From Methanobacteriota archaeon (GTDB lineage: Archaea > Thermoplasmatota > Thermoplasmata > RBG-16-68-12), in the NCBI GenBank assembly GCA_020029475.1, contig JAIBJG010000020.1, forward strand, positions 18,114-42,113: a stretch of 24,000 nt of DNA, written 5' to 3'. This document shows, one piece after another, positions 7,741 through 21,953 of this stretch. A model generated the notes under the pieces. That model worked only from the letters and a program-made list of their open reading frames with translations. It was not told the DNA's origin and ran no database searches. Both the position numbers and the translations under genes were made by a program. Within the stretch, counting starts at the first letter, position 1, and the number at the start of each line of letters is the position of its first letter.

Positions 7741-10700
7741 TCAGAGCCGTTTCTTGCCCTTGTTGTCCTCTTCGGGCTCGGCCGCCTCGTCCTTGTCCTC
7801 GAGCTTCTTCTTCTCTTTCTTCTCTTTCTTCTCCTTGCGGCGGAAGACGAGCTCTCCCGAGCGGTACCGGCTGTATGTCCGCGCGGCGAAGGCGACCCCG
7901 ATCACGAGGGCGATGAACAGGATGATCGCGAGGGGGATCACCCAGCCCGCGAGCTTCACGAACACGCTCCCCGTGATCCGGTTCTGGCTGTCCACCCACG
8001 TGTACGGCTCCTTGCCGTCGTAGACCTTGATCTCCAGGGACTTGTTCCCCTGTGCCGGGAAGCTGATCAGGAAGATGAGCCGGACCCTCGCACCCGTGTT
8101 CACGCGCCGGTCGGTGATGGGGTTCCAATTCACGTCCAGCCATTGGGGGCTCGTGTTATTGAGAACGTTGACACCGTTCGGGTCTTTCGCTTCGAGGACC
8201 ACATGGACATCCGTCGCGTTCGCTCGGTTCGCGCCGTTCTCGATCATGAACGACACGTTGATCAGCTGGCCCTCCTCGGGCTGGCCGGGCTCGATCTTCA
8301 GGGAGGCGGCGATGTACTTCAGGTCCGGGTGCTTCGCGAGATCCACCGCCACTGCGATCCCCGACGTCAGGTTCGCGTAGTTCGGCGGGCGCCCGAGGAA
8401 GCCCGTGTCCGTCACGTTCACGGTGACGTTGTAGGAGACGTTGAACTCCCGCCACCAGACGGTGACGTTCCAACCCCATGTGGACGTAATCGCATTGTAG
8501 CCCTTCTGGCTGGAGATGTTCCCTTTCGAGTCGCAGGCGGGCGTGCAGTTCACGGGACCCGGGAAGTGCCATGTGTAGGAGAGGTTCCGGTTCGAGTCGT
8601 AGTTGTCCGAGGATGAGGAGGCGTTGAACGAGTAGTTCTTCCCCTCGACGAGGCTCGTCGTGACGATCCAGTCCCTCGAGGGGTCCAGGATCACGAAGTT
8701 CGGCGTGGGCTTCGTCTGGTAGCTGGGGATGCTGGCCGTGTGGTTGTTCAGCCAGGGGGGAGCCGTTGACCACGCCACGTCGCTGGAGCTGTCCCCATAG
8801 AACTTGATGGGACTGTCCTCGTCGACCTGGAGGTTCTTTCCCGTCCAGTCTCCGACAGTCCGGTTTGTCCTGAGCCTCGCGACGGGCGGCGTGTCGTCCA
8901 CGAAGATCTTGATGTCCCGATACGTCCGGTTCCCGCCCGCCTCGACGACGGTCAGGTTCACGGTGAACTCGTGGCCCTCCGCGGCGAGAATCGCGGCCGT
9001 GTAGTTGAACGTCGACGTGATGTTGTATCCGATCCGGGCCCGGTTCGTGTTGTTCGTAAAGTGCCAGGTGAAATTCGCGTCCCGAATGTTTCCGACGGGG
9101 TCGATCGACTGCTCGGCGGAGAACGTGATGTTCGTGTCCTCCGCGACGATCGCCGTGTAGTTCTTGTCGGTGTCGCTGAGCACGTGGAACTTCCCGATGG
9201 GGCCCGCCACGGCGGCCCGGGCGGTCCCGTTAATGGACTTCCGCACCGTCATCTCGATCTCCGACGTGGCCCCACTCGCCGAAAGGCCGGGATCCAGTGT
9301 GACGACGGTCCACAACGACGTCGTGATCGTCCCCGTGACCTTCTTGTCCGTCATCTCGTAGCCGCGGGGGAAGTCCACGACGATGACCTGGTCCTGGTAC
9401 ACGCTCTCGTTCACGTCGTTCGGCGTGGTCACGTTCACGAAGTACGTGGGCGCGGAATTCGCGAGCGGGGTCGTCGCACGCAGTCTGTAGGAAGCGGATC
9501 TGTTGATCCAGATCGCCCGGCCGCCCTCTGCGAAGTAGTTGACAGACCACGTGGGCGGCGGGACGCTCCAGTTGTGGATCGCGCCGTTCGTGGTCAGGAA
9601 GTCGTTTGTCGTCACATAGTACGGACTCCGGGTGCCCAGCCATGCTACGAAGGAGGCGTTTTCGCCAGCGTCCCGGACCCCGTTCGCGGTGCCATTGGGC
9701 AAGCCGAAGTGGTAGTCGATCTGGAGGTCCAGGCTGCGGATCTCCGCGAGCTTGAGCGCGGGAAGGGTGCTGTCCGAGCGGAGGGTCAGGTTTCGGCTCA
9801 CCGCCATCCTGCTCCAGTTCGTTTCGGCGTAACTGACCGTGGATCGGTACACCTCCTTCTCCGACACCGCGAGGAAGGAGTCGACCGGATTCCCCGCGTA
9901 CGGCGGGTTCAGCGGCGTCGTGATCGTCCGCGTCGCCGCCTTGTAGCCGTTGGCGTCGACGACCATCCGATACGTCTGGCCGGGCTCCGCATAGAAGGTA
10001 TACAGGCTGGCGACGACCTGCGCCTCGATCACCTTCCTGAACGCCGGCCAGGTCCTGTCCACGTTGTACAGGAACCCCACAACCCCCTGGTCGATCCGAC
10101 GGAAGTTGTCCGATCGGAAGGCGTGCCCGACGATGATGATGCCCCGCGTCAAGACAACGCGGGTGAAGTTCGTCGTGGCCGTGTCCACCAGCAACGTGAC
10201 CGGGTGGTATTCGTCCTTCGACACCTGGACCTCCAGCACGCCCCGCCAGATGGGGAAGGTCGCGAATCCCGTACCGTTCGTCGCGGAGGTCGAGACGACC
10301 TGGTTCTGCCCCTGATCGAGGAGGTTCACCGTCGCATCCGCGAGGGCCCCTGCGCTCCGGTAGGTCACGGTGAGTGTGTTGGTCCCGAAGAGGAAGTCGT
10401 TAAGGATCCGGACGCCGCCCGTGCTTTCGTCGAGCGTCCAGTTCTGCCCGGAGACCCCCCACAGCACACCGTCCTTGAACACGATCGCGCTCCCGGGGAT
10501 TACGGGATAGGAACTGAGGCGGGAGGTCGTGGACGCGTACCAATACGTCACGTTCAGGAACTGATGGGTCGAAGCGAGGCTCGCGGCGACCGTGGGGTTG
10601 AGGATCTGAAGGGTTCCATCGAAGAAATTGGACCACGTGTAGTCGACCGACGGGTTCAGGAACGTCCCCCGGTAGCGGACCTCGTAGTCCGTGGTCCACA

Positions 10701-11232
10701 CCGGACTGAACTTCGTTCGCGTGAAGTTCCCGTTCGAGTCGAATCGGGGTCCGGCGTCCTCCACCGGGACCTGCGTGCGGGCGAAGGCAACCGTCTCGTT
10801 CGGGTGAAGGAGGTTCGCGTCGTCGACGACAAGCACCTGGAGGCTCGCATCGCGATCGGGCATCTTCGTGAGGCACACGTTCACCGCCGGGAGGTCCCGG
10901 CTGCCGTCGAACCGGAACGCGCCGATCTCCCTCGAATAGTATCCGTCACGGGTGAATCGAAGGAGGAACGTACCGGGCGAGGGCGAGAACTCGTAGTAGC
11001 CGTCGCCGAGGGTCGTCTGCCCCTCCGGCCCGCGGATGCCCTGTGCGTCGACGAGGCTGACCGCGACGGTGGCCAGGAACTTCGGCGGGTTCGCGCCGCA
11101 CTCCTGGACGAACCCGAAGACGATGTGGTCCTGGGCCGCGGCGGTCCAAGAGGGCAGCGCGGCGAGCCCCCCGACGAGGACCGTGAGCATCGCCAGAATC
11201 GCGCCTATTCTCGTGTACAGAGCCTTGTTCAT
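7741..11232 (-). CDS. Large secreted, C-terminally membrane-anchored surface (S-layer-like) glycoprotein candidate
   Basis: From ATG 11232 the sequence MNKALYTRIGAILAMLTVLVGGLAALPSWTAAAQ reads as a signal peptide. I counted about 40 N-x-S/T sequons by hand. There are repeated beta-rich modules resembling carboxypeptidase-regulatory/PKD-like domains (e.g. SLVDAQG…TTLGDGYYEF…RFTRDGYY; ANFTWHF; LSYTWHF). A C-terminal TM helix (WVIPLAIILFIALVIGVAFAA) is followed by a Lys/Glu-rich tail, RRKEKKEKKEKKKLEDKDE…KGKKRL. Confidence 0.8.
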   Translation of the reverse strand: MNKALYTRIGAILAMLTVLVGGLAALPSWTAAAQDHIVFGFVQECGANPPKFLATVAVSLVDAQGIRGPEGQTTLGDGYYEFSPSPGTFLLRFTRDGYYSREIGAFRFDGSRDLPAVNVCLTKMPDRDASLQVLVVDDANLLHPNETVAFARTQVPVEDAGPRFDSNGNFTRTKFSPVWTTDYEVRYRGTFLNPSVDYTWSNFFDGTLQILNPTVAASLASTHQFLNVTYWYASTTSRLSSYPVIPGSAIVFKDGVLWGVSGQNWTLDESTGGVRILNDFLFGTNTLTVTYRSAGALADATVNLLDQGQNQVVSTSATNGTGFATFPIWRGVLEVQVSKDEYHPVTLLVDTATTNFTRVVLTRGIIIVGHAFRSDNFRRIDQGVVGFLYNVDRTWPAFRKVIEAQVVASLYTFYAEPGQTYRMVVDANGYKAATRTITTPLNPPYAGNPVDSFLAVSEKEVYRSTVSYAETNWSRMAVSRNLTLRSDSTLPALKLAEIRSLDLQIDYHFGLPNGTANGVRDAGENASFVAWLGTRSPYYVTTNDFLTTNGAIHNWSVPPPTWSVNYFAEGGRAIWINRSASYRLRATTPLANSAPTYFVNVTTPNDVNESVYQDQVIVVDFPRGYEMTDKKVTGTITTSLWTVVTLDPGLSASGATSEIEMTVRKSINGTARAAVAGPIGKFHVLSDTDKNYTAIVAEDTNITFSAEQSIDPVGNIRDANFTWHFTNNTNRARIGYNITSTFNYTAAILAAEGHEFTVNLTVVEAGGNRTYRDIKIFVDDTPPVARLRTNRTVGDWTGKNLQVDEDSPIKFYGDSSSDVAWSTAPPWLNNHTASIPSYQTKPTPNFVILDPSRDWIVTTSLVEGKNYSFNASSSSDNYDSNRNLSYTWHFPGPVNCTPACDSKGNISSQKGYNAITSTWGWNVTVWWREFNVSYNVTVNVTDTGFLGRPPNYANLTSGIAVAVDLAKHPDLKYIAASLKIEPGQPEEGQLINVSFMIENGANRANATDVHVVLEAKDPNGVNVLNNTSPQWLDVNWNPITDRRVNTGARVRLIFLISFPAQGNKSLEIKVYDGKEPYTWVDSQNRITGSVFVKLAGWVIPLAIILFIALVIGVAFAARTYSRYRSGELVFRRKEKKEKKEKKKLEDKDEAAEPEEDNKGKKRL

Positions 11233-11308
11233 GGTCCCACGTCTCGCAGGGAGTTCTGCCGTCCACCTCCCGGCGCACCGCCGGAAGCATCGCGCCAAAA
11301 GGATGTGG

Positions 11309-11384: not shown

Positions 11385-12677
11385 ATGGAGGGAACGCGGT
11401 GTCCGGGCCCCGTGGAGTACGCCTTCGTCGCGGGCGCCGCGGTGTTCGTCCTCACATATGTGCTGATCTCCGCCCGGAAGGTCGGCGTCCTCAAGATCGA
11501 GCGCCCTGCCGCGGCGATGCTCGGGGCCGCGCTGATGATCGTCCTCGGCGTCGTCGGCCCGCTCGAGGCAATCCAGGCGATCAACCTCGACGTGATCGTC
11601 CTCCTCCTCGGGATGATGCTCCTCGTGGCGGGGCTGGACGCGTGCGGGTTCTTCGTCACCGTCTCCGAGTTCATCGCGCGCCGGGCCCGGACCCAGGTCG
11701 AGCTCCTCGCGGCCCTCATGGTCGCGGCGGCGGTCCTCAGCGCCCTCGTCCTGAACGACACGATCGCCCTCCTGATGACCCCAATCGTCGTGCGGGCGTG
11801 CCAGGCGATGAGGCTCGACCCCGTCCCGTTCCTCGTCGGGGAGGGGATCGCCGTGAACGTCGGGAGCGTCGCGACGGAGATCGGGAACCCGCAGAACGCG
11901 TACATCGGGATCCGTAGCGGCATCCCGTTCGTCGAGTACGCCGCCGTGATGACTCCGATTACCGCCGCGTGCCTCGCAATCGCGATCGTGGGCGTGACCC
12001 TGGCGTTCCGAGGGCGTCTCGGGAAACCGATCCCCGCCCGCCCTCCCCAGGCGGACGTGGCGAAGCTCCACCGCCCCGGGCTCGCGTTCACCCTCGCGGT
12101 CCTCCTCGGGTCCGTCGTCGCGTTCTTCCTCAGCGCTCCGACGTGGCTCCCCGCGATCGCCCTCGCGGGCGGGAGCTTCGTCCTGTTCGGCCTCCCCATC
12201 GTGAACCGGAACGCCTCCGGCCGCGCCCTTATCGGGTCCGTGGACTGGTCCATCCTCCTGTTCTTTGTCGGCCTCTTCGTCGTGATCGCGGGGGTCGAGC
12301 GGTCCGGGGTGCGGGCGTCGATCCAGGACACGTTCACGTTCGTCAGCGGGGGGAGCACCGGCGGCGTGTGGTGGCTCTCCGGCCTCTCCGCGGTCCTCTC
12401 GAACCTCGTGTCGAACGTCCCCGCGGTCCTCCTCCTGGAGCCCGTCGTGCGCGGAGCCCCGCTAGCGCAGCAGCGAACCCTGTGGCTCGCCCTCGCCGCG
12501 AGCTCGACCCTGGCGGGGAACGCAACGATCCTCGGGGCGGCGGCGAATGTGATCGTCGTCCAGGCCGCCGCCCGCCGGGGGGTGGAGGTCACGTTCCGGG
12601 ACTGGGTCCGCGCCGGGCTCCCAGTGACGATCGCGACCCTCGTCCTCGCGACTGCGGTCCTCGCGGCCCTCCCGTGA
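11385..12677 (+). CDS. ArsB/NhaD (citrate-transporter-like) family permease
   Basis: The protein is polytopic and highly hydrophobic. LDVIVLLLGMMLLVAGLDACGFF and SNVPAVLLL…ASSTLAGNATILGAAANVIV are typical of the ArsB/NhaD ion transporter superfamily. The start was moved from 11319 to ATG 11385 because of the TATA position, and it remains uncertain. Confidence 0.78.
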   Translation: MEGTRCPGPVEYAFVAGAAVFVLTYVLISARKVGVLKIERPAAAMLGAALMIVLGVVGPLEAIQAINLDVIVLLLGMMLLVAGLDACGFFVTVSEFIARRARTQVELLAALMVAAAVLSALVLNDTIALLMTPIVVRACQAMRLDPVPFLVGEGIAVNVGSVATEIGNPQNAYIGIRSGIPFVEYAAVMTPITAACLAIAIVGVTLAFRGRLGKPIPARPPQADVAKLHRPGLAFTLAVLLGSVVAFFLSAPTWLPAIALAGGSFVLFGLPIVNRNASGRALIGSVDWSILLFFVGLFVVIAGVERSGVRASIQDTFTFVSGGSTGGVWWLSGLSAVLSNLVSNVPAVLLLEPVVRGAPLAQQRTLWLALAASSTLAGNATILGAAANVIVVQAAARRGVEVTFRDWVRAGLPVTIATLVLATAVLAALP

Positions 12678-12690
12678 CGAGCGTTCAAGT

Positions 12691-13371
12691 ATGCGCGGGG
12701 CCGTGCCATCCCCGATGGGTGCGGATTTCGAGAAGGAACGTCACAGGCTGGTCAAGAGGCTGGAGGAATGGGGATACGTGAAATCTCCTTCCGTGCGGGC
12801 GGCGTTCCTGAACGTCCCTCGGGAGCGGTTCGTCCCGGACGACCTGCGGGCGTCCGCGTACGACGACGCGCCCCTCCCGATAGGCCACGGCCAGACGATC
12901 TCCGCCCCGTCGATGATCGCAATCATGCTCGAGGAGGCGGACCTAGGGCCGGGGGAAAACGTCCTCGAGATCGGGACGGGCTGCGGGTACCACGCGGCCC
13001 TCCTCGCGGAGATCGTGGGCCCGGACCGCGTCGTCTCCGTGGAGCGGATCCCCGCCCTCGCGGACCTCGCCCGCGCGAACCTCGCGGCGTGCGGGTACCG
13101 GGTGGAGGTCGTCGTCGGGGACGGGACGTTGGGGTACCCGCCCCGCGCACCCTACGACTGCGTGATCGCGACCGCGGGCGCCCCGCGAATCCCGAACGCC
13201 TGGAAGGAACAGACCCGGGTCGGGGGGCGGATCGTCGCGCCCGTGGGGAAGTCCCGGATGAACCAGGTCCTCGTCACCGCGCGCCGGGTGTCCGAATCGA
13301 AGTGGGAGGTCCGCGAGGGGACGGCGTGCGCATTCGTCCCGATGATCGGTGCGGAGGGCTGGAAGGCCTAG
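12691..13371 (+). CDS. pcm: Protein-L-isoaspartate O-methyltransferase
   Basis: …VPRERFVPDDL…YDDAPLPIGHGQTISAPSMIAIMLE…VLEIGTGCGYHAALLAEIVG… contains the PIMT signature and the SAM-binding GxGxG. An alternative ATG at 12715 lies about 27 nt downstream of TTCAAGTAT, so the mRNA may be leaderless. Confidence 0.9.
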   Translation: MRGAVPSPMGADFEKERHRLVKRLEEWGYVKSPSVRAAFLNVPRERFVPDDLRASAYDDAPLPIGHGQTISAPSMIAIMLEEADLGPGENVLEIGTGCGYHAALLAEIVGPDRVVSVERIPALADLARANLAACGYRVEVVVGDGTLGYPPRAPYDCVIATAGAPRIPNAWKEQTRVGGRIVAPVGKSRMNQVLVTARRVSESKWEVREGTACAFVPMIGAEGWKA

Positions 13372-13374
13372 GTC

Positions 13375-13758
13375 TCAGGGGGCCGGCGGGGAGTGGCTCC
13401 ATGCTTCCTCGGGGAGCTCCCGGTACACGGGTTCATCCCGGTCCGTCTCCGCCTCCCCCTCGCCGACGATCCGGTCGATGTCCCCCTCGTTCAACTCCCA
13501 GTAGAAGATCCTCCAGTTCCTCCCGCTCAGCAGGAGGACGGTCTCCCACGAGGATCGGAGAATCCCCGCGTCGTGGAGCGCGTAGAACAGCTTGCGGTCC
13601 TCCGGGAGGATCGCGTTGTCGATGATGAAGTTCTCGAACCCGAAGTAATCCATCACGCGGGCGGCCATCGCGTACGCCTCGTCGTGGGGCAGCCCCAGCC
13701 GCTTCTCGATCGCCTTCGCCAGCTTCTCCACCGTGACCGCCATCGGTTGGTCCCGCAC
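13375..13758 (-). CDS. Hypothetical protein (127 aa; GTG 13758 or ATG 13743)
   Basis: Third-position G/C usage is consistent. The plausible globular sequence MAVTVEKLAKAIEKRLGLPHDEAYAMAARVMDYFGFENFIIDNAILPEDRKLFYALHDAGIL… has an acidic C-terminal tail. I recognise no motif. The TATA-like ATCTTAATAC (minus strand, 13794-13785) lies upstream. Confidence 0.6.
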   Translation of the reverse strand: MRDQPMAVTVEKLAKAIEKRLGLPHDEAYAMAARVMDYFGFENFIIDNAILPEDRKLFYALHDAGILRSSWETVLLLSGRNWRIFYWELNEGDIDRIVGEGEAETDRDEPVYRELPEEAWSHSPPAP

Positions 13759-14114: not shown

Positions 14115-14152
14115 GGCCAGCCCTTATTAGCAGGGCGGGACTCGTGTTCTCC

Positions 14153-14554
14153 ATGGAGCCGGACGAGGACGGAGACGATTTCGAACTCCCGCAGCCGCCG
14201 GCGCCCCCAGGTCCTCCCCCAAAGGCAGAGCTCAAGATCCGGGACGCCTCCGTCCGCCGCCGCGGGAAGGCGTGCGTCGTGTGCGGGCGGGCGAAGCCCG
14301 CGTACATCGAGGTCGAGATCGACGGCGTCGCGGAGTACACGTGCCGGGACTGCTACGAGCTCCAGTCCCAGGGCCTCTCCGGCGAGGTCACCCAGTTCTG
14401 CACGAAGTGCGGCACCGCCCTCCTGAAGGGGGACAACTTCTGCGGCCGCTGCGGCACCCCCGCGTCCCTGCGGTGCCCGAAGTGCGGCGCCCGCCCCGAG
14501 GAGGAGGACGCCTTCTGCGGGAAGTGCGGGGCCGCCCTACGCCCGCCTCCGTAG
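14153..14554 (+). CDS. Double zinc-ribbon protein with an acidic/Pro-rich N-terminus
   Basis: Four CxxC pairs are arranged as zinc ribbons: CVVCGR…CRDCY; FCTKCGTAL…FCGRCGTP; RCPKCGA…FCGKCGAAL. ATG 14153 lies about 27 nt downstream of CCCTTATTAGC (14121-14131). The track start GTG 14144 is also possible. The 3' end overlaps the convergent JAB gene by 18 nt. Confidence 0.7.
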   Translation: MEPDEDGDDFELPQPPAPPGPPPKAELKIRDASVRRRGKACVVCGRAKPAYIEVEIDGVAEYTCRDCYELQSQGLSGEVTQFCTKCGTALLKGDNFCGRCGTPASLRCPKCGARPEEEDAFCGKCGAALRPPP

Positions 14555-15514
14555 GACCGTCGCCCGCTTCGGGGCCCGGTACACCTTCTTCGGCAGCGGG
14601 GTCGTCTCGTGGACGCTGAGGGACCCGAGGTTCGCTTCGAACCGCTCCACCCCCGCGAGGTCCACGGCGCTCGCGTCGAACCCCCGCCACAGGAGGAAGA
14701 GGACGTCGTCGAGGATCTCGTTCCGGGTCGCGAGGAGCACCTCGTCCTCGTCCGACCCCGCGACGAACACCGTGGGATCGAGGCGTAGGGAGAGCTCGAC
14801 CCGGTGGGCGTCGTCGTCCCTTTGGATCACCAGACGGTTCCGGATCGCACCCGCCCCGAGGCCGTCGAGCTCCACGGTCCCCCGCCCCACGCTCGCGGAC
14901 CGGACCGCGCGATCGAGGTCCGCGGACACCTTCTTCTCCAGGGCCGCGACGACCCCGGCGGCGTTCGCCTCCGAGACCTTCAGGGAGAACGACGGCGCCA
15001 CGGAGGTCGTGTACCGCTTCAAATGGCCAGCCATGGAGAGGGTCTCCACGATTGCGGGCGTCACGGGGGCGGGGAACCCGTCACGCAGCACGAAGCATTC
15101 CGCGGAACGGCCGTCGGTAACGACGGAGACGAAGTTCTCCCGCCGTGACGCGCGGCTCGTCAGGGTCGCGTCGTCCGTCGCGCTGTGGAAGATCGCGTGG
15201 CGGGTGTCGTCCTTGAACGGGTGGGAGTGGTACAGCCCGACGATCCCGACGTTCCTCGGGTACCGCATCACGATCTCCGCCTCCTCCATGGGGTCCGCGA
15301 TCGCCCCGTACCGGCTCTGGTGCTTGTACCGGGTGGCGGGATGGGCGTCGAGGACGTACGGCTCGCCCCCGACGTAGAATCCGAGGAGCCAGCCGATCGC
15401 CTCCCGGCCCGAGCTCCGGGCGACGTTCCCTGCATGTTGGAGTAACGCCCGCCACGCGGTCCGCAGGATGTGGGCCGGGCCGTTCATCGGCCTCTCCGCC
15501 CGCACGTGCCGCAT
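14537..15514 (-). CDS. JAB/MPN (JAMM) metalloprotease with an approximately 170-aa uncharacterised C-terminal domain
   Basis: The N-terminal domain has the JAMM elements: Glu in SSGREAIGWLLG, then GLYHSHPFKDDTRHAIFHSATD (HxH … SxxD, with a longer-than-canonical spacer). The C-terminal half, from about TLSMAGHLKRY to …VLRRRA, contains no motif I recognise. Two ATGs are possible. The one at 15487 forms an ATGA overlap with the E1 stop codon, suggesting translational coupling. Confidence 0.8.
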   Translation of the reverse strand: MRHVRAERPMNGPAHILRTAWRALLQHAGNVARSSGREAIGWLLGFYVGGEPYVLDAHPATRYKHQSRYGAIADPMEEAEIVMRYPRNVGIVGLYHSHPFKDDTRHAIFHSATDDATLTSRASRRENFVSVVTDGRSAECFVLRDGFPAPVTPAIVETLSMAGHLKRYTTSVAPSFSLKVSEANAAGVVAALEKKVSADLDRAVRSASVGRGTVELDGLGAGAIRNRLVIQRDDDAHRVELSLRLDPTVFVAGSDEDEVLLATRNEILDDVLFLLWRGFDASAVDLAGVERFEANLGSLSVHETTPLPKKVYRAPKRATVLRRRA

Positions 15515-16245
15515 TTCGGGTCACGCTTCCAGTCCACCCGCTCGAGCCGGCCCTCGAGGCCGAAGTACATGAGGTACGGCGCGACGCTCCCGAACCCGAG
15601 GAGCACCTTCAGCGCCTCCTGGCACTGGAGGCTCGAGACGACTGCCATCGTCGTGGGCAGGGAGGTGAAGTGGCACGCCCCGCCGTCCTCCCGCCGGGCG
15701 GGCCGCATCGCGGACCCGTCTTTCAGGGCGGGACGGTTGCACCGGTAGCACGCGGTCTTCCCGGGGATCACGACGTGGACGCTCCCGTTCACGCCGTCCT
15801 CGGAGGCCCCTCCGTCGATGAACGGGACCCGGGCCGCGACGGACCTCGCGTTCAGGAACAGGCGCACCGCGAAGGAGTCCACGCACCCGAGGAGGAGGTC
15901 GCTCTCCGGGATCTCCTCCCGAAGGGCCTCCAGGCCCTTTCCGTCCGTCACGTCGAACGCGTACGACGTGACCCGGACGTCCGGGTTCGCCGCGCGGAGG
16001 TGGTCCCGGATCGCCTCGACCTTCTTCTCCCCGACCTGGTCCGTCCGGTACACGAGGCGGTTCAGGTTCGCCTCCTCGACCGTGTCGTAGTCGAACAGGG
16101 CGAGCTCCCCGACCCCGAGGCGGGCGAGGATCTCCGCGCTCAGGGCTCCGAGGCCGCCGACCCCGACGATCGCGACCCGCTTCCCCCCGAGCTTCGAGAG
16201 GTCCGCGTGGCCGAACAGTCGGAGGCGGGCGTACCGCCCCGTCAC
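15484..16245 (-). CDS. E1-like Ubl-activating enzyme (ThiF/MoeB fold), UBA5-like minimal adenylation domain
   Basis: It carries the nucleotide-binding motif KRVAIVGVGGLGALSAEILARLGVGELALFDYDTVEEANLNRL. Zinc-site CxxC pairs are present (CYRC, CGTC). The candidate catalytic Cys lies in GGACHFTSLPTTM. I set the start at GTG 16245, which overlaps the E2 stop codon (GTGA), giving 253 aa. The track's extension to 16674 overlaps the E2 gene out of frame and looks like non-protein low-complexity sequence. Confidence 0.85.
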   Translation of the reverse strand: MTGRYARLRLFGHADLSKLGGKRVAIVGVGGLGALSAEILARLGVGELALFDYDTVEEANLNRLVYRTDQVGEKKVEAIRDHLRAANPDVRVTSYAFDVTDGKGLEALREEIPESDLLLGCVDSFAVRLFLNARSVAARVPFIDGGASEDGVNGSVHVVIPGKTACYRCNRPALKDGSAMRPARREDGGACHFTSLPTTMAVVSSLQCQEALKVLLGFGSVAPYLMYFGLEGRLERVDWKRDPKCGTCGRRGR

Positions 16246-16745
16246 ATCCAGCCCTTTCCCTTCATGTCCGCGACGACGCTCTGGAGCCAGTAGCTCACCT
16301 CCCGCTTCAGGTACAGGGCGATGGAGGAGTGGTCGTCCCACCAGTAGTTCCTCTCCATGTGCATGTCGCAGATCCGGAGGCCGAGGCTCGGGTCGTCCAC
16401 CTTCCGGTCCGTGTAGTGCATCAGCTCCGGGATCCGGCACGCGGGCGGCACCTGCGGGTACGCGTCCTTCAGGACGAGCTCGATGTCCCACGATCGGCCC
16501 CCGTGGACGACCTTCCCCGTCCATCGGGTCTTCTTCGGGCTCGTCGGGCGGATCGCGAACCACTCGTTCTTCTCGAGGAACCTCAGGTACTCCTCGAACC
16601 GTTCGAGGGCGTACACCTCCTCCGCGGCGCGGTCCTTCCACGCCGGCTCCTTCGGGGACGCGACCGTCGCGCACTGGAGGAAGTAGAAGAGATCGTCGTC
16701 CGTCTTCAGGTGGGCCTCGCCGTAATCCCGGATCCGGAGGGGCAT
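16242..16745 (-). CDS. E2-like Ubl-conjugating enzyme candidate, UFC1-like (non-canonical, no HPN motif)
   Basis: At 167 aa it is the same length as human UFC1. By eye it shares with my remembered UFC1 sequence NEWF (UFC1 NDWF), TRWTGK (TRWFGK), YPQVPPACRIPEL (YPTTAPEIAVPEL) and LRICDMH (KICLTDH). That places Cys126 opposite the UFC1 catalytic Cys. The operon position between a Ubl and an E1 supports the call. Confidence 0.7.
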   Translation of the reverse strand: MPLRIRDYGEAHLKTDDDLFYFLQCATVASPKEPAWKDRAAEEVYALERFEEYLRFLEKNEWFAIRPTSPKKTRWTGKVVHGGRSWDIELVLKDAYPQVPPACRIPELMHYTDRKVDDPSLGLRICDMHMERNYWWDDHSSIALYLKREVSYWLQSVVADMKGKGWM

Positions 16746-16770
16746 CCGGGTGCAGCGTAGGCGGGCCGGT

Positions 16771-16780
16771 GGCTTAAACC
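16771..16780 (-). promoter_or_regulatory. Possible internal TATA-like box (minus strand GGTTTAAGCC) upstream of the E2 gene
   Basis: It lies in the 42-nt Ubl-E2 spacer, with its centre about 31 nt upstream of ATG 16745. That is the same geometry as the other putative leaderless promoters in this window. Confidence 0.3.
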
Positions 16781-16787
16781 GTGAGGC

Positions 16788-17060
16788 CTACAGAATCGAG
16801 GGCGGGAGCGAACCGACGATGCTCGGGTCGATCACGTGGATGTTCGTGGACTTCTCGGCGACCTCGCCCACGGTCCCGCCCGCGATCGGGGAGCCGCCGG
16901 GGTACGTCGCGGTCATGATCCCCGCATCCTTCCCCTGACGCTTCGCGGCGAGGACGAACGCCTCCTGGAACAGCATCTCCTCGGGGACCTTCAGGGTCAC
17001 CGCGGGCTTGTCCGCCTCGGAGATGAAGATGAACCGGAGGGTGATCGCCATGGACGCCAC
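16788..17060 (-). CDS. Ubiquitin-like protein, UFM1-like, with a C-terminal VG followed by a 7-residue tail (SLPPSIL)
   Basis: It is 90 aa from GTG 17060, or 87 aa from ATG 17051. The pattern fits a beta-grasp fold (ITLRFIFI / AVTLKVP / helix MLFQEAFVLAAKRQG / IMTATY / NIHVI). By eye it aligns with human UFM1: [21 protein letters not shown] matches TLKVPEEMLFQEAFVLAAKRQ, and ELRIIPRDRVG-SC matches NIHVIDPSIVG-SLPPSIL. It does not end in GG. Confidence 0.65.
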   Translation of the reverse strand: MASMAITLRFIFISEADKPAVTLKVPEEMLFQEAFVLAAKRQGKDAGIMTATYPGGSPIAGGTVGEVAEKSTNIHVIDPSIVGSLPPSIL

Positions 17061-17087
17061 TGGGCGCGCCCTCGAAACCCGTCCCCG

Positions 17088-17097
17088 CTTATTTAGA
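17088..17097 (-). promoter_or_regulatory. Putative TATA-like box (minus strand TCTAAATAAG) for the Ubl gene/operon
   Basis: This is the only AT-rich element in the 72-nt rhodanese-Ubl spacer. Its centre lies about 32 nt upstream of GTG 17060. It implies that the Ubl cluster is transcribed separately from the suf-JAMM-rhodanese unit. Confidence 0.4.
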
Positions 17098-17132: not shown

Positions 17133-17480
17133 TCAATACGGCGTGAGGCTCGGGTCCACGCGCTGGATCCACGCGTCGATCCCGCCCTCGAGGTTCTTCG
17201 CTTTCGGGAAGCCGAGCCGCCTCAGGTAGAAGACGGCCTGCTCGGAGCGGGAGCCCATCTTGCAGTACGCGACGACCTCCGCCTTCGGGTCGAGCTCACG
17301 GGCCCGCTGCGGGAGCGTCATCAGGGGGATCAGGGTCGCGCCCTCGATCCGGTTCACGGCCCACTCGTCCGGCTCCCGCACATCGAGGAGGACGACCGCA
17401 TCCCCCCGATCGAGCTTCGCCTTCAGCTCCTCCGGGGTGATCGTGAAGGACTCGCCGGTTCCCCGCCTAGACCAGGTCAA
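17133..17480 (-). CDS. Single-domain rhodanese (sulfurtransferase)
   Basis: …VVLLDVREPDEWAVNRIEGATLIP… is followed by the active-site loop YCKMGSRS (Cx5R-type), then GGIDAW. The protein is 115 aa. Its start overlaps the upstream JAMM gene by 14 nt. Confidence 0.85.
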   Translation of the reverse strand: MTWSRRGTGESFTITPEELKAKLDRGDAVVLLDVREPDEWAVNRIEGATLIPLMTLPQRARELDPKAEVVAYCKMGSRSEQAVFYLRRLGFPKAKNLEGGIDAWIQRVDPSLTPY

Positions 17481-17940
17481 TCTCCACCTCCGTGAACGCC
17501 CGCCTCCCGTCGCGGTCGTCGAGGCTCCAGGCCCGGAGGTCGACGGGCTTCCCCTTCTCCACCGCGACGACCACGTACGTGTACCAGGTGAACCCGCGGT
17601 CCACGTCGATCGCGGACGGCCGCGCGGGATGGTCAGGATGGGAATGGAAGAACCCGAGGATCTCGCGCCCGGACCCGGAGAGCTCCTTCGTCAGCCGCAG
17701 GGTCTCCGCGGGGTCCACTCGGTATCGGACGTCGCGGTCCTCCGTCTCGACGTTGCGCGTCGGTCGGAACTCGTCGATCCGACGCGGCGTCGCGTCCGGC
17801 CCCAGGAGATACCCGCACCCCTCCTCGGGGTACGTCTCCTTCCCGTGGCGCTTCATCGCGTCGACGACCGCCTTCGTGATCTGGACCGCGCCTTCGATTG
17901 GTGCGACCCCGGCGGAGCCCTTTGACGCGTCGACCTTCAT
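17467..17940 (-). CDS. Stand-alone prokaryotic JAMM/MPN+ metalloprotease (Mec+/QbsD/HvJAMM-like)
   Basis: The JAMM motif is canonical: PEEGCGYLLG (Glu) followed by GFFHSHPDHPARPSAID (HxHx7SxxD). The protein is 157 aa. A strong SD (GGGAGGGACGGG) sits directly upstream of the ATG, 37 nt after the sufS stop. Confidence 0.85.
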   Translation of the reverse strand: MKVDASKGSAGVAPIEGAVQITKAVVDAMKRHGKETYPEEGCGYLLGPDATPRRIDEFRPTRNVETEDRDVRYRVDPAETLRLTKELSGSGREILGFFHSHPDHPARPSAIDVDRGFTWYTYVVVAVEKGKPVDLRAWSLDDRDGRRAFTEVEIDLV

Positions 17941-17977
17941 CCCGTCCCTCCCATGCTCCCGAGGTCTCGCAAGGACC

Positions 17978-19225
17978 TCACGCGAAGACGTCCAGCACCT
18001 TCCGGAGGCCCGCCGCCAGGCGGTCCGCTTCCTCGGGCGTGTTGTACACGTAGAACGACGCCCGCGCGGTCGCGGGGACGTTCAACCGCTCCATGAGGGG
18101 CTGCGCGCAGTGGTGGCCGGAGCGGATCGCGATCCCCTCCACGTCCAAGATCGAGGCGATGTCGTGCGGGTGGACGTCGCCCAGGGTGAACGAGATCACG
18201 CCCCCGCGGCGGGAGGCGTCCTTCAGGCCGAACCCGTGGAACCCCTTCACGTCGGAGAGCGCGTCGAGGGCGTACTCCGTGAGCTCGACCTCGTGCTGCC
18301 GTACGTTGTCCATCCCGATCTTGTTCAGGTAGTCCACGGCGACCCCGAGCCCGATCGCCCCCGCCATGTTCGGGGTGCCGCCCTCGAACTTGAACGGGAC
18401 GTCGTTCCACTTCGCGATCCCGAGGTGGACCTCCCGGATCATCTCCCCCCCGCCCATCAGGGGCTCCATCTCCTGGAGCCGCTCCTCTTTCCCGTAGAGG
18501 ACCCCAATCCCCGTGGGCCCGAGCATCTTGTGCCCGCTGAACGCGAGGAAGTCGCAGTCGATCTTCTGGACGTCCACGGGCATGTGGGGGACGCTCTGGG
18601 CCGCGTCCACGACGCAGATCGCGCCGACCTCGTGGGCCCGCTTCGCGATCTCCTGGACGGGGTTGATCGTCCCGAGGACGTTTGAGCACTGGGTCACGGT
18701 GACGACCTTCGTCCGCTTCGTGATCATCGTGTCGTAGTCCTCCATCTTCAGGGCGCCGTCGTCGCTCATCCCGACCCACTTCATCTTCACGCCCTTCGCG
18801 TCCTGGACGAAGAACCACGGGACGTGGTTCGAGTGGTGCTCCATCACCGTGGAGACGATCTCGTCCCCCTCCCGGAGCTTCCCCTTGATCCCCCAGCCGT
18901 AAGCGATCGTGTTGATGCTCTCCGTCGTGGACTTCGTGAACGCGACCTCGTTCGGGGACCGGGCGTGGATGAACTGGGCGATCTTCTCCCGCGCGCCCTC
19001 GTACGCGCGCGTCGCCTCCTCCCCGAGCTCGTAGATCGCCCGGTGGACGTTCGCGTTGTACCGGCTGTAGAAGTCCGAGACGGAGTCGATCACGGCCTGC
19101 GGTTTCTGCGAGGTCGCCGCGCTGTCGAGGTACACGAGAGGCTTGCCGCGGACCGTGCGCGAGAGGATCGGGAAGTCCGCCCGGATCTTCTCGACGTTCA
19201 TCAGAAGCTTCGTCTTCGAGACCAT
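17978..19225 (-). CDS. sufS: Cysteine desulfurase, SufS type (PLP-dependent, class V aminotransferase)
   Basis: FLAFSGHKMLGPTGIGVLYG contains the PLP-binding Lys, and RSGHHCAQPL contains the catalytic Cys loop. The protein is 415 aa and lies within a suf cluster. Confidence 0.92.
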   Translation of the reverse strand: MVSKTKLLMNVEKIRADFPILSRTVRGKPLVYLDSAATSQKPQAVIDSVSDFYSRYNANVHRAIYELGEEATRAYEGAREKIAQFIHARSPNEVAFTKSTTESINTIAYGWGIKGKLREGDEIVSTVMEHHSNHVPWFFVQDAKGVKMKWVGMSDDGALKMEDYDTMITKRTKVVTVTQCSNVLGTINPVQEIAKRAHEVGAICVVDAAQSVPHMPVDVQKIDCDFLAFSGHKMLGPTGIGVLYGKEERLQEMEPLMGGGEMIREVHLGIAKWNDVPFKFEGGTPNMAGAIGLGVAVDYLNKIGMDNVRQHEVELTEYALDALSDVKGFHGFGLKDASRRGGVISFTLGDVHPHDIASILDVEGIAIRSGHHCAQPLMERLNVPATARASFYVYNTPEEADRLAAGLRKVLDVFA

Positions 19226-19307
19226 GGCCTCCCCTACCCGAGCGGGTTCCGCGATACGGCTCCCACCCCTTTAATCCTGCGACATGAGCGTCGTGACATC
19301 GATCTCC

Positions 19308-19748
19308 TCACTCCATGGAGATGCTCCCCTTCGATTCGAGGGCGGCCTTCAGGGTGTGCCACGAGAGGCTCGCGCACTTCACCCGGATCGGGAACTCCGA
19401 GACGCCTTGGAACACGGCGAGCTTCCCGAGGGAGTCCGGGTCCGCCTCCTTCCCCATCACGAGGTCGTGGAAGCGGTCGAAGAGGTGCTCCGCCTCGTCC
19501 TCCGTCTTCCCCTTCACGGCCTGGGTCATCATCGACGCGGATGACTTCGAGATCGCGCACCCCTGACCCTCGAAGGCGACATCCGCGATCCGGTCCCCCT
19601 CCATCCGGAGGTACACCGTGAACTGGTCCCCGCACAGCGGGTTCCGCCCGAGGGCGGTGCGGTCCGCGGGCTCGAGCTTGTGGAAGTTCCGCGGGTTCTT
19701 GCTGTGGTCCAGGATCTGCTCCTGGTACAGCGCCTTCAGGTCCGCCAT
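19308..19748 (-). CDS. sufU: SufU/IscU-like sulfur-transfer/scaffold protein
   Basis: From ATG 19748 the sequence reads MADLKALYQEQILDHSKNPRNF…NPLCGD…GQGCAISKSSASMM…IRVKCASLSW, with three conserved Cys and an Asp. The track's upstream extension to 19976 is Arg/Pro/Ser-rich shadow sequence overlapping sufD. Confidence 0.85.
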   Translation of the reverse strand: MADLKALYQEQILDHSKNPRNFHKLEPADRTALGRNPLCGDQFTVYLRMEGDRIADVAFEGQGCAISKSSASMMTQAVKGKTEDEAEHLFDRFHDLVMGKEADPDSLGKLAVFQGVSEFPIRVKCASLSWHTLKAALESKGSISME

Positions 19749-19797
19749 CAGCGCGCCTCCGTCCGACCAGACGCGATGGAGGCATCCCGCGGGACGT

Positions 19798-21153
19798 TCA
19801 TAAGGCCTCCCGCACCGCCTCGCTGTTCGGGAGGCGGGAGAGCAGGAGGACGCCAAGGGTCGCCCGCATCGCGGGGACCCGGACGAGGTCCACGACCTCG
19901 CGGGCGAAGGCGTACGTGAGGATCGCCCTCGCGGTCTCCGCGTCGATCCCCCGGGACCGAAGGTAGAACACGGCATCCTCGTCGATTTGGCCCGTCGTCG
20001 ACCCGTGTTTGCACTTCACGTCGTTCGCGTAGATCTGGAGACCGGGGATGCTGTCCACGAGCGCCTCCTTCGAGAGGAGGAGGTTCTTGTTCGTCTGGGT
20101 CGCGTTCGTCTTCTGGGCGCCCGGATGGACGATGATGTTCCCGTAGAACACGCCCCGCGCGCGGCCGTCCAGGATCCCCTTGTACAGCTCCCGGCTCGTG
20201 CACTGCGGGGTGAGGTGGTCGATCCTCGTGTGGTTGTCCACGTGCTGGTTTCCCGTGACGGAGTACAGGCCGTTCATCGCGAGCTCCCCGCCCTCCGCCG
20301 TGAACCGCTGGTTCACGTCGTTCCGCACGAGGCCCCCGCCTAGGGAGAACGAGCTGTCGGAGACGTTCGTCCCGCGGCCCTGCTCGATCTCCAGGGTCGC
20401 CAGGTGGAACGCCCGCTCGCTCTCCCGCTGGAGCTTGTAGTGGTCGAGGACGCCGCCTCCCTTCACGATCGCCTCCGTGACCGCGTTCGTCAGGTAGACG
20501 CCCGCATCGAGGCCCGCGTAGCTCTCCGTGACCGTCACCTGCCCGCCATCCTCGACGACGATCAGGTTCCGGGGATGCGCGACGGCGGGCTCCCGCTGCG
20601 CGGTGGAGACGAACAGGAGGTGGATCGGCTCCTCGACGACCTTCCCCCGGGAGACGTGGATGAACGCCCCGTCCTGGAGGAACGCCGTGTTCAGGGCGGT
20701 GAACGGGTTCGCGTCGAACCGGGCGATCCTCGAAAGGTACGGCTCGAGCTCCGTCGGGTCCTCCCGCAGGGCCTCCGCGAGGCTCCCCACCTGGACCCCG
20801 GCGGGGATGTTCCGCAGAGAAGAGAGCCGCTTCGAGTAGCGGCCGTTCACGAAGACGAGTTCGCTCCCCTCGAACTTCCCGAACACGACCGGCTCCAGTC
20901 TCTCCGCGGACAGGCCGTCCCCGGGGATCGTCACGGCGGGCGTGAACCGTCCCCTCGCGATCGGTTGGATGTTCGTGTACTTCCACATCTCGTGCTTCTG
21001 GGTGGGGAACCCGAGCTCGCGGAACTGCGCGAGGGCCTTCCTCCGCGTCTCTTGGAGCCAGCGGGGGTCGCCCGCGAAGTGCTCCCGCTCCAGGGCCTTG
21101 AAGTCCGACAGATAGGGTTCGCGGGGGTCCGCGACGTCCGGCACGGCCACCAC
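19798..21153 (-). CDS. sufD: Fe-S cluster assembly protein SufD
   Basis: The protein is 451 aa with a GTG start. The C-terminal beta-helix region …THIDHLTPQCTSRELYKGILDGRARGVFYGNIIVHPGAQKTNATQTNKNLLLS…PGLQIYANDVKCKHG is typical of SufB/SufD. Its position after sufC also fits. Confidence 0.88.
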   Translation of the reverse strand: MVAVPDVADPREPYLSDFKALEREHFAGDPRWLQETRRKALAQFRELGFPTQKHEMWKYTNIQPIARGRFTPAVTIPGDGLSAERLEPVVFGKFEGSELVFVNGRYSKRLSSLRNIPAGVQVGSLAEALREDPTELEPYLSRIARFDANPFTALNTAFLQDGAFIHVSRGKVVEEPIHLLFVSTAQREPAVAHPRNLIVVEDGGQVTVTESYAGLDAGVYLTNAVTEAIVKGGGVLDHYKLQRESERAFHLATLEIEQGRGTNVSDSSFSLGGGLVRNDVNQRFTAEGGELAMNGLYSVTGNQHVDNHTRIDHLTPQCTSRELYKGILDGRARGVFYGNIIVHPGAQKTNATQTNKNLLLSKEALVDSIPGLQIYANDVKCKHGSTTGQIDEDAVFYLRSRGIDAETARAILTYAFAREVVDLVRVPAMRATLGVLLLSRLPNSEAVREAL

Positions 21154-21156
21154 CGC

Positions 21157-21933
21157 CTACGGCCCCGCCGCCACGGGCCCGGGGGCGGCCTCGTCGACCC
21201 AGCTGTACCCGCGCTTCTCCAGCTCGAGGGCGAGCTCCCGCCCTCCCGACTTCGCGATCCGCCCGTTCACGAGGACATGGACGAAATCCGGGGTGATGTA
21301 GTTCAGGATCCGCTGGTAGTGGGTGACGACGACGATCGCGCGGTCCTTCGCGCGCATCGTGTTCACGCCGTTCGCGACGACCCGGAGGGCGTCGATGTCG
21401 AGCCCGGAGTCCGTCTCGTCGAGGACCGCGAGGCGGGGCTCGAGCACCGCCATCTGGAAGATCTCGTTCCGCTTCTTCTCCCCGCCCGAGAAGCCGTCGT
21501 TCAGGGAGCGGCCGAGGAAGCTCTCCTCGAGCCCGAGGAGCTTCATCTTCTCCGTCACGAGGCTCATGAAGTCCATCGCGTCGAGCTCTTCCTCCCCGCG
21601 GTGCCGCCGGATCGAGTTCAGCGCGGACTTCAGGAAGTACGCGTTGCCGACGCCGGGAATCTCCACGGGGTACTGGAACGCGAGGAAGAGCCCTTCCCGG
21701 GCCCGGAGCTCCGGCTTCATCGCGAGGAGGTCCTTCCCGTCGTACCGCACGGTCCCGCCTGTGACCTCATAGTTGATGCGACCCGCCAACACGTTGGCGA
21801 GGGTGCTCTTCCCGGAGCCGTTCGGGCCCATGATCGCATGGACTTCGCCGACGTTCACGGTGAGGTCGACCCCCCTCAGAATCTCCTTGTCGCCGACCTT
21901 CGCGCGCAGTCCCTTGATCTCGAGCAGTGCCAT
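21157..21933 (-). CDS. sufC: Fe-S cluster assembly ATPase SufC
   Basis: From ATG 21933, preceded by the SD GGAGGGAGGAGAG, the sequence reads MALLEIKGLRAKVGDKEILRGVDLTVNVGEVHAIMGPNGSGKSTL (Walker A). The ABC signature GFSGGEKKR and Walker B LAVLDETDSGLD follow. The track extension to 22692 lies inside sufB and was rejected. Confidence 0.93.
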   Translation of the reverse strand: MALLEIKGLRAKVGDKEILRGVDLTVNVGEVHAIMGPNGSGKSTLANVLAGRINYEVTGGTVRYDGKDLLAMKPELRAREGLFLAFQYPVEIPGVGNAYFLKSALNSIRRHRGEEELDAMDFMSLVTEKMKLLGLEESFLGRSLNDGFSGGEKKRNEIFQMAVLEPRLAVLDETDSGLDIDALRVVANGVNTMRAKDRAIVVVTHYQRILNYITPDFVHVLVNGRIAKSGGRELALELEKRGYSWVDEAAPGPVAAGP

Positions 21934-21953
21934 CTCTCCTCCCTCCGGTGGGC

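Follow-up and report, generated by a model that had tools for sequence, protein, structure and literature searches.

A predicted UFM1-type conjugation cascade encoded by a four-gene operon in uncultured Thermoplasmatota archaea

The main target of the eukaryotic ubiquitin-like protein (Ubl) UFM1 is uL24/RPL26 (PMC10120006), and surveys of the pathway have treated UFM1 and its conjugating enzyme (E2) UFC1 as exclusive to eukaryotes, with only the activating enzyme (E1) UBA5 having prokaryotic homologues (PMC10183829, PMC4327156). Grau-Bove et al. (2015) reported that archaea and bacteria lack Ufm1, and Picchianti et al. (2023) found UFM1, UFC1 and UFSP2 only in eukaryotes and UBA5 homologues in archaea and bacteria, while placing the origin of UFL1 and DDRGK1 in Asgard archaea. 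Kostlbacher et al. (Nat Microbiol 2026; PMC12962969) have since described an Asgard Ufm1-like protein, which according to these authors occurs in no other prokaryote; UFC1 and UBA5 are not mentioned in that work. An archaeal operon for a related kind of cascade is known from Caldiarchaeum subterraneum, which encodes ubiquitin, an E1, an E2, a RING E3 and an Rpn11 homologue (PMC5654768, PMC6043591). Here we analyze a 24,000-nucleotide (nt) stretch of contig JAIBJG010000020.1 (positions 18,114 to 42,113; the whole stretch is called the window below) from an archaeon of soil or sediment that belongs to the phylum Thermoplasmatota and carries four adjacent genes for a Ubl, an E2, an E1 and a JAB (JAMM) protease. 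As judged from the encoded sequences, we put the probability at about 80% that these genes form a working UFM1-type conjugation cascade, borne on the chromosome of uncultured Thermoplasmatota. A preliminary description of this DNA had read the core proteins in the same way, and the present results support that reading, none of the outcomes that it had named as speaking against its assignment of the E2, the E1 or the Ubl having been found.

The operon occupies positions 14537-17060 of the minus strand, and its four open reading frames (ORFs) follow one another in the order Ubl, E2, E1 and JAB, all of them present at the coordinates and in the order first described. The gene for the UFM1-like modifier (16788-17060) encodes 90 amino acids (aa) if it starts at a GTG and 87 aa if it starts at the ATG at 17051. 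It is followed by the gene for the UFC1-like E2 (16242-16745; 167 aa, proposed catalytic Cys126), by that for the UBA5-like E1, which consists of the adenylation domain only (15484-16245; 253 aa, proposed catalytic Cys191), and by that for the JAMM/MPN+ metalloprotease (14537-15514), which has 325 aa from the ATG at 15514 or 316 aa from the ATG at 15487. The E1 gene starts with a GTG that overlaps the E2 stop codon by 4 nt (GTGA, within ATGTGA), and the JAB ATG at 15487, the start used in most orthologues, likewise overlaps the E1 stop codon by 4 nt (ATGA), so that both junctions have the typical look of translationally coupled operon genes. A protein identical to the 316-aa form of the JAB protease is already on record (P0151).

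Upstream of the Ubl gene, the TATA-like box reported earlier, TAAATAAG, is present on the minus strand at 17088-17095, 28 nt 5' of the GTG and 37 nt 5' of the ATG. In 18 orthologous loci, an equivalent AT-rich box, with an 'aac'-type stretch before it, precedes the Ubl gene at equal spacing. Since the box stands out in a window with a GC content of about 68%, and since its spacing is the same in the 18 related loci, it is a reasonable inference that it serves as the dedicated archaeal promoter of the operon.

The E2 scored 33.8 bits (E 3.4e-8) against the Pfam family UFC1 (PF08694), above the cut-off of 25, over profile positions 11-146 of 155, and the same family was matched by all 24 E2 family members tested, with a best E of 2.8e-15. 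Matches of the window E2 to Prok-E2_B and UQ_con were sub-threshold in Pfam, and weak side matches to these two families were seen in 10 and 5 of the 24 family members, respectively. When the protein was compared with all PDB sequences, the only significant matches were UFC1 chains; a place in another family (UBC or BilB-like), which had been named as the alternative, is therefore not what the searches returned. The blocks that the preliminary description had recognised as shared with UFC1 (NEWF, TRW-GK, YP...P...PEL and IC) coincide in real alignments; overall identity to eukaryotic UFC1 is 26%. In both HMMER and MAFFT alignments, Cys126 falls opposite Cys116 of human UFC1, as had been proposed, and it is invariant in the E2 family, where it forms part of the invariant motif L-R-I-C-D-M-H-M-E; the spacing given at first for this motif (I-C-x-x-x-H) has to be corrected to I-C-x-x-H. 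As in UFC1, and in agreement with the original reading, no HPN motif occurs anywhere in the 167 residues. Of the human UFM1 and UFC1 reference sequences used in the hhalign, MAFFT and identity comparisons, that of UFC1 was confirmed by PDB alignments for most of its length (residues ~18-157).

A profile made from 24 archaeal E2s and run against 1.84 billion representative proteins yielded 55 matches at E <= 0.001. These comprised the family itself, about 15 proteins with the motif ICHDHM, the named members of which come from metagenome-assembled genomes (MAGs) of Promethearchaeota, Heimdallarchaeota and Lokiarchaeota, and about 35 eukaryotic proteins of UFC1 type, 45-90% identical to human UFC1, including two clusters named as 'ubiquitin-fold modifier-conjugating enzyme 1' of moss, Selaginella and salmonids. 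We recognised no ordinary UBC or Prok-E2 proteins among the 55. Comparison of alignments with hhalign joined the Thermoplasmatota E2s to eukaryotic UFC1 with a probability of 99.2% (E 3e-19) and to the Asgard E2s with 98.7% (E 2e-16), the corresponding values for Asgard E2s and eukaryotic UFC1 being 97.7% and 2e-12. A eukaryotic UFC1 profile gave a median score of 54 bits for Thermoplasmatota E2s versus 32 bits for Asgard E2s. By similarity, which is not phylogeny, the Thermoplasmatota family resembles UFC1 no less than the Asgard E2s do, and at the level of sequence these comparisons demonstrate the homology of the E2 to UFC1.

The E1 contains a full ThiF-family adenylation domain (184 bits against Pfam ThiF), and in the PDB five human UBA5 constructs score best (about 156 bits, E 8.6e-45), followed by MoeB (111 bits), ThiF (88), MccB (77), UBA1 (75), Uba4 (58), Cap2 (43) and BubCD (42). 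It remained below the curated cut-off of every NCBIfam family that it matched, by a wide margin for ThiF (124 bits versus 275), MoeB (122 versus 266) and UbaA (99.5 versus 450), so that the closer relationship to MoeB, ThiF or UbaA considered beforehand is contradicted by the scores. The protein is 37% identical to the adenylation domain of human UBA5 over 241 aa (with the UBA5 sequence taken from the PDB alignment), and the blocks that the preliminary description had quoted as shared with this domain are reproduced. Cys191, in GGACHFTSLPTTM, stands opposite the catalytic-cysteine block GVCAASLPTTM of UBA5 (Cys250 in the human protein), and Cys166 and Cys169, in ACYRC, are aligned with ACFAC. 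A distal pair, Cys245 and Cys248, is found where the UBA5 alignment ends, at the first distal cysteine; the position used for the second distal zinc ligand of human UBA5 is a presumed one. We propose these four cysteines of the archaeal protein as zinc ligands. The E1 ends at 253 aa, 5 residues past the last zinc cysteine, and since it stops right after the zinc site it lacks the UFM1-interacting and UFC1-binding sequences of the UBA5 C-terminus, as had been stated. The alignments establish homology to UBA5; given the missing tail, we call the protein UBA5-like rather than an orthologue that has the complete UBA5 architecture.

The Ubl itself had no match in Pfam, NCBIfam or the PDB (phmmer). 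It has 44 homologues at 63-98% identity, and across species loci its identity ranges between 62 and 92%. In a 26-member alignment the C-terminus ...H-V-I-D-P-S-x-V-G is nearly invariant and its Val-Gly is invariant; 14 of the 26 proteins end exactly at VG, the tail-less members being about 80-81 aa long, and in the remaining 12 the VG is followed by unrelated tails of 1-12 residues. The window protein, which ends in ...HVIDPSIVG followed by the 7-residue tail SLPPSIL, belongs to the latter. An invariant VG with a variable tail or none is, at the level of sequence patterns, the signature of a modifier that uses its terminal glycine. The start of the gene is ambiguous: orthologues begin with M-x-x-T-L-R-F, which fits the ATG at 17051 (MAITLRF) better than the GTG, and they thereby favor the 87-aa form, in which the glycine is Gly80. 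The earlier statement that this residue is Gly83 as in human UFM1 holds from the GTG only and, with the start ambiguous, is not a firm coincidence.

Sequence comparisons of the Ubl touched UFM1 repeatedly at marginal levels. Pfam Ufm1 (PF03671) was the only Pfam family reached, by 4 of the 26 Ubls and below threshold (best E 0.007), and the sole match of the family profile in the PDB was the UFM1 of Trypanosoma (T. brucei), with a non-significant E of 0.69. With hhalign, the probability was 46% against human UFM1, over the N-terminal half that includes the VPE...F...AA region, and 17% against an alignment of Asgard and human sequences; identity to eukaryotic UFM1 is about 22%. An AlphaFold model built with the family alignment is a beta-grasp fold with a predicted local distance difference test (pLDDT) score of 87. 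Foldseek placed UFM1 structures at all of ranks 1-14 among its PDB matches (E 1e-5 to 4e-4, template modelling (TM) scores 0.70-0.89), with root-mean-square deviations (rmsd) of 1.2-1.5 A over 74-79 columns for most of them and 2.4-2.9 A for four. SUMO came next, at an rmsd of 2.2-3.1 A, and none of ThiS, MoaD, SAMP or Urm1 was among the 50 matches listed, so that the concern that the protein might not be a beta-grasp, or might lie nearer to ThiS/MoaD/SAMP, is not borne out by the model. In the absence of a significant sequence match, the assignment leans on the predicted structure, the C-terminus and the gene context, which together support a UFM1-like nature; of the likeness claimed in the preliminary description, the fold and the VG end have stood, and the similarity of sequence has proved only marginal.

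The fourth gene encodes a protease whose JAMM residues (E29, H87-x-H89, S102 and D105 in the numbering of the 316-aa form) are invariant in 36 diverse homologues, and many of its orthologues carry precomputed matches to PF01398 or PF14464. In a model with a pLDDT of 86.8 and a predicted TM score (pTM) of 0.83, the N-terminal ~160 residues had as their best structural match in Foldseek the Caldiarchaeum Rpn11 homologue bound to ubiquitin, with further matches to Rpn11, CSN5, BRCC36 and AMSH. The C-terminal ~170 aa (14537-15040) form a separate, confidently modelled alpha/beta domain in which the motifs NEILDD, LLW and EANLG are conserved and which ends in a basic tail, PLPKK-Y--PKR. No significant match to this domain was obtained with the family profile among PDB sequences, and Foldseek with the full model aligned the JAB half only. 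The charge of the basic tail hints, speculatively, at binding to nucleic acid or the ribosome. Since the JAB gene is kept even in genomes with a tail-less Ubl, the constant role of the protease would be deconjugation and not precursor processing, and its distribution thus suggests deconjugation as the main role.

We found 106 homologues of the E2, and wherever a source is named it is a MAG of Thermoplasmata, Methanomassiliicoccales or 'Methanobacteriota'. With one genome taken per species, a scan recovered 31 loci, labelled Thermoplasmata, Thermoplasmatota, Methanomassiliicoccales or Methanobacteriota; its search patterns were family-specific, so that more distant relatives would be missed. 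In these 31 species genomes and in the metagenome contigs, the order Ubl-E2-E1-JAB is kept in essentially every informative locus, and it persists down to 54% identity of the E2 and 29% identity of the JAB protein. Apart from contig ends, it fails only at a masked stretch in locus L027 and in locus L031. An apparent loss of the JAB gene in L027 was discarded, because runs of masked N begin just past the E1 gene. In L031, the position of the Ubl gene is taken by overlapping ORFs that encode low-complexity sequence rich in Lys, Arg and Glu. Overall, the operon appears to have been inherited vertically within a set of uncultured Thermoplasmatota.

As for novelty, all 106 E2 homologues are unnamed or 'hypothetical', and the preliminary claim that no such operon had been characterised experimentally largely holds in the searchable literature, where the Asgard Ufm1-like protein alone has been reported. 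Pfam matches on these proteins are already in public databases, and our search covered the literature outside subscription-only papers; we therefore limit ourselves to saying that within it we found no description of an archaeal UFC1, be it from Thermoplasmatota or, among the papers listed, from Asgard archaea.

A possible fifth component lies next to the operon. The gene at 14144-14554 on the plus strand, convergent to the JAB gene and overlapping the end of that gene with its own 3' end, encodes a 136-aa zinc-ribbon protein with matches to Pfam DZR and Zn_Ribbon_1. It begins with a family-specific ribbon (CxxCG...PYIE.E..G..E.TC..CY), which is followed by a double zinc ribbon. A profile of the first ribbon found one gene, in the same convergent spot past JAB, in 23 of 35 Thermoplasmatota loci; in most of the others, the sequence stops or is masked shortly past the operon. 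The protein keeps the same C-terminal ribbons in the most divergent loci, where its length is 380-445 aa (L001, 10444-11649; L026, 8438-9583; L029, 8433-9581; L031, 8757-10094). To judge by their sequences, these long forms start with a hydrophobic stretch that looks like a membrane anchor and continue with a long charged helical region. From its conserved position, we consider the zinc-ribbon protein a candidate adaptor or substrate.

The proposed mechanism, every catalytic step of which is inferred by homology, would run as follows. The Ubl would be made in one of two forms, either with Val-Gly at its end and ready for use or carrying a short tail (SLPPSIL in the window) that the JAMM protease would trim. 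The UBA5-like E1, probably a homodimer like UBA5 and MoeB, would adenylate the terminal Gly of the Ubl with ATP and take the Ubl onto Cys191 as a thioester. From there it would be handed to Cys126 of the UFC1-like E2, which would pass it to target lysines, directly or with a partner from outside the four genes, and the JAMM protease would also reverse the modification.

Several observations weigh against this scheme. For the Ubl, significance against UFM1 was not reached by sequence in any of the three comparisons (Pfam, profile against the PDB, hhalign). In the E2, the loop before Cys126 has an invariant T-D-R-K and four extra residues, which two aligners place differently relative to T-A-K, so that the 'TAK' motif of UFC1 is not clearly conserved in the archaeal family, given this ambiguous loop alignment. 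The window JAB protein scored 22.7 bits against Pfam Prok-JAB, just under the cut-off of 25. In L031 (5718-6000), no Ubl gene adjoins the E2 gene, an absence that is real for the adjacent position. Neither an E3 of UFL1, DDRGK1 or CDK5RAP3 type nor a UfSP-like gene is visible in the window, the lack of a UFL1-like E3 having been remarked on before. Lastly, the C-terminal tail of UBA5 recruits UFM1 and UFC1, and the archaeal E1 lacks this tail.

Relatives outside Thermoplasmatota were encountered in Asgard archaea. The 135-kb Heimdallarchaeota contig WJIK01000029.1 (L036, 1990-12554) holds a related cluster with two UFC1-like genes, a ThiF E1 that has an acidic C-terminal extension and is 42% identical to the window E1, and a 91-aa Ubl ending in VINRGDVG-LL, which may be compared with RIIPRDRVG-SC in human UFM1. 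Two long JAB proteins are also encoded there, with a catalytic domain 35% identical to that of the window protease; one of them has hydrophobic N-terminal stretches. The cluster adjoins two ESCRT-II-like EAP30 genes and a Band_7 gene. Seven matches of the E2 profile (P0309, P0311, P0317, P0319, P0324, P0325 and P0338, of which only P0338 is named) resemble the Asgard-named E2s, with an ICHDHM-type motif. In six of them (258-303 aa), an N-terminal Ubl and a UFC1-like E2 are fused in one chain, and in 5 of these 6 the fused Ubl ends in ...VG or ...AG. The seventh, P0338, is an 866-aa 'SIR2 family protein' of Lokiarchaeota with a C-terminal E2 domain, and we read a TPR-like region between the two.

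Two explanations other than a UFM1-type cascade were weighed. The genes could belong to a sulfur-carrier or cofactor system of the ThiS/ThiF, MoaD/MoeB, Urm1/Uba4 or SAMP/UbaA kind, in which the Ubl would form a thiocarboxylate and not tag proteins. The E1 is indeed a member of the ThiF superfamily, matching the ThiF and MoeB models at E of about 1e-35, and immediately upstream of the operon on the same strand the window carries what looks like a sulfur-handling (Suf) cluster: a rhodanese gene (17133-17480, minus strand) directly 5' of the operon, its end overlapping a gene for a small JAMM protein of 157 aa (17467-17940, minus strand), and beyond this SufS, a NifU-like gene and two SufB/D genes, the group spanning 17133-23402 on the minus strand. 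However, these neighbors are absent from all loci but those of the three closest relatives (the rhodanese from one of these as well, being present in 2 of 3), and on this ground rhodanese, small JAMM and SufS were ruled out as parts of the system. Moreover, the E1 falls far under the ThiF, MoeB and UbaA cut-offs and has a higher score with UBA5; the C-terminus of the Ubl is Val-Gly and not Gly-Gly, and its nearest folds are UFM1 and SUMO; and sulfur transfer offers no role for a conserved E2 whose cysteine is invariant. These points make the explanation most improbable. We also hold it to be very unlikely that the operon is an antiviral defence system of the Bil/Bub type or of the Cap2/Cap3 type of cyclic-oligonucleotide-based antiphage signalling systems (CBASS), with the likeness to UFM1 enzymes reflecting shared E1/E2 ancestry. 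Its content of Ubl, E2, E1 and JAB is that of Bil operons, the PDB matches include Cap2 and Citrobacter BubCD, and among the models of PADLOC-DB 2023, which may lack Bil models, the CBASS E1-E2 models gave the E1 up to 96 bits and a JAB model weakly matched the protease (20 bits). Yet the E2 reached only 14-15 bits against the defence E1-E2 models versus 34 against UFC1, and the E1 156 bits against UBA5 versus about 42 for Cap2 and BubCD. The surroundings are of the housekeeping kind, with conserved flanking synteny (DUF6015, PCMT) and no mobile-element or defence genes seen, the sequences are highly conserved across species, as the Ubl illustrates, and no relative was found in viral contigs. 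The weak PADLOC matches, the housekeeping setting and the lack of viral relatives led us to reject the defence interpretation.

If the operon does encode UFM1-type enzymes, there is still the matter of where they came from. They could be genuine and have been acquired secondarily by horizontal transfer, with Asgard archaea or an early eukaryote as the donor, and they would then reveal little of how the pathway arose. Among prokaryote matches with a named source, related E2s occur only in Asgard archaea; the E2 family is tight, with one full-length representative at 50% identity, which is consistent with a single acquisition; and the family-specific scan patterns found the operon in only 31 species genomes of one phylum. 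Those same patterns, being specific to the family, could not have detected distant relatives in other phyla. The identities to eukaryotic proteins are low (26% for the E2, 37% for the E1 and about 22% for the Ubl), so that any transfer would have to be ancient, and the form of the operon, in which genes overlap and a JAMM protease is included, is a prokaryotic one. The preference of the eukaryotic UFC1 profile for Thermoplasmatota over Asgard E2s (54 versus 32 bits) is also not what a simple copy from Asgard archaea into Thermoplasmatota predicts. On balance we think an acquisition of this kind rather unlikely. Somewhat better placed, though still tentative and short of even odds in our estimate, is the proposal that the Ubl-E2-E1-JAMM cassette of Thermoplasmatota and Asgard archaea represents a prokaryotic forerunner of eukaryotic UFMylation. 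Were this true, the whole UFM1/UFC1/UBA5 triad, and not UBA5 or Ufm1 alone, would be older than eukaryotes and would extend beyond Asgard archaea, the ancestral protease would have been a JAMM enzyme that UfSP replaced later, and the zinc-ribbon neighbor might be an early membrane adaptor or substrate, loosely analogous to DDRGK1.

The other neighbors of the operon are housekeeping genes, those for ThiD/ThiN, LigT, aRF1, ArgRS, a CitMHS transporter and PCMT. The flanking synteny extends to DUF6015, which accompanies the operon in about 18 of 35 loci, and to PCMT, in about 8 of 35; the two genes lie at 12691-13758 in the window and at 11775-12805 in locus L002, with others elsewhere. Further along the minus strand (7741-11298), a 1185-aa ORF with a weak CarboxypepD_reg-like match probably encodes a large surface protein; the GC content of its region, 0.62-0.64, is somewhat below that of the rest of the window.

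The locus adds a complete, presumably co-transcribed UFM1-type Ubl/E2/E1 set with its own protease in Thermoplasmatota, to which a related set in Asgard archaea can be compared. If confirmed, it would move the origin of UFMylation to before the eukaryotes and outside the Asgard archaea. With four small proteins and neither an E3 nor the UBA5 tail, it would offer a minimal system for studying activation and transfer of the UFM1 type, and it raises the question of what the tag is attached to in a cell that has no endoplasmic reticulum, the ribosome being the obvious candidate.

Among described systems, the eukaryotic UFM1 system is the one to which the three core proteins are most closely related by sequence or fold. 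The E1 resembles UBA5 in having its catalytic cysteine inside the adenylation domain together with a four-cysteine zinc site, the E2 resembles UFC1 in lacking HPN and in the cysteine aligned with Cys116, and the Ubl, like UFM1, ends in Val-Gly, sometimes with a short tail that would need to be removed. Unlike the eukaryotic system, in which the E3 consists of UFL1/DDRGK1/CDK5RAP3 and the proteases are UfSP1/2, the archaeal genes form one operon, with a JAMM enzyme in place of the UfSP cysteine protease, a tail-less E1 and no such E3 visible in the window. The Asgard clusters have the same component set, with ICHDHM in the E2 where the window protein has ICDMHME; they differ in gene order and strand, and Asgard proteins include several Ubl-E2 fusions and one SIR2-TPR-E2 fusion. 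The operon of Caldiarchaeum subterraneum is similar in being archaeal and in encoding a JAMM protease along with a eukaryote-like Ubl cascade, whereas its proteins are of the ubiquitin/UBC type with a RING E3, and those described here are of the UFM1/UFC1/UBA5 type without a recognisable E3. Bil/Bub and CBASS Cap2/Cap3 share the prokaryotic Ubl/E2/E1/JAB cassette, with a JAB protein expected both to process and to deconjugate, but they belong to other sequence families, and the present operon sits in a housekeeping setting and not in a defence island. Sampylation, finally, is not known to use an E2; its Ubls have a Gly-Gly end and serve as sulfur carriers as well. The SAMP/UbaA/HvJAMM1 system has in common with ours an archaeal Ubl, an E1 of the ThiF family and removal by a JAMM protease; in contrast to it, the window E1 reaches 99.5 bits where the UbaA cut-off is 450, the Ubl ends in Val-Gly and an E2 is always present. 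The system is best seen as a prokaryotic variant of the UFM1 cascade, encoded by an operon, that has no visible E3, a tail-less E1 and a JAMM protease of its own.

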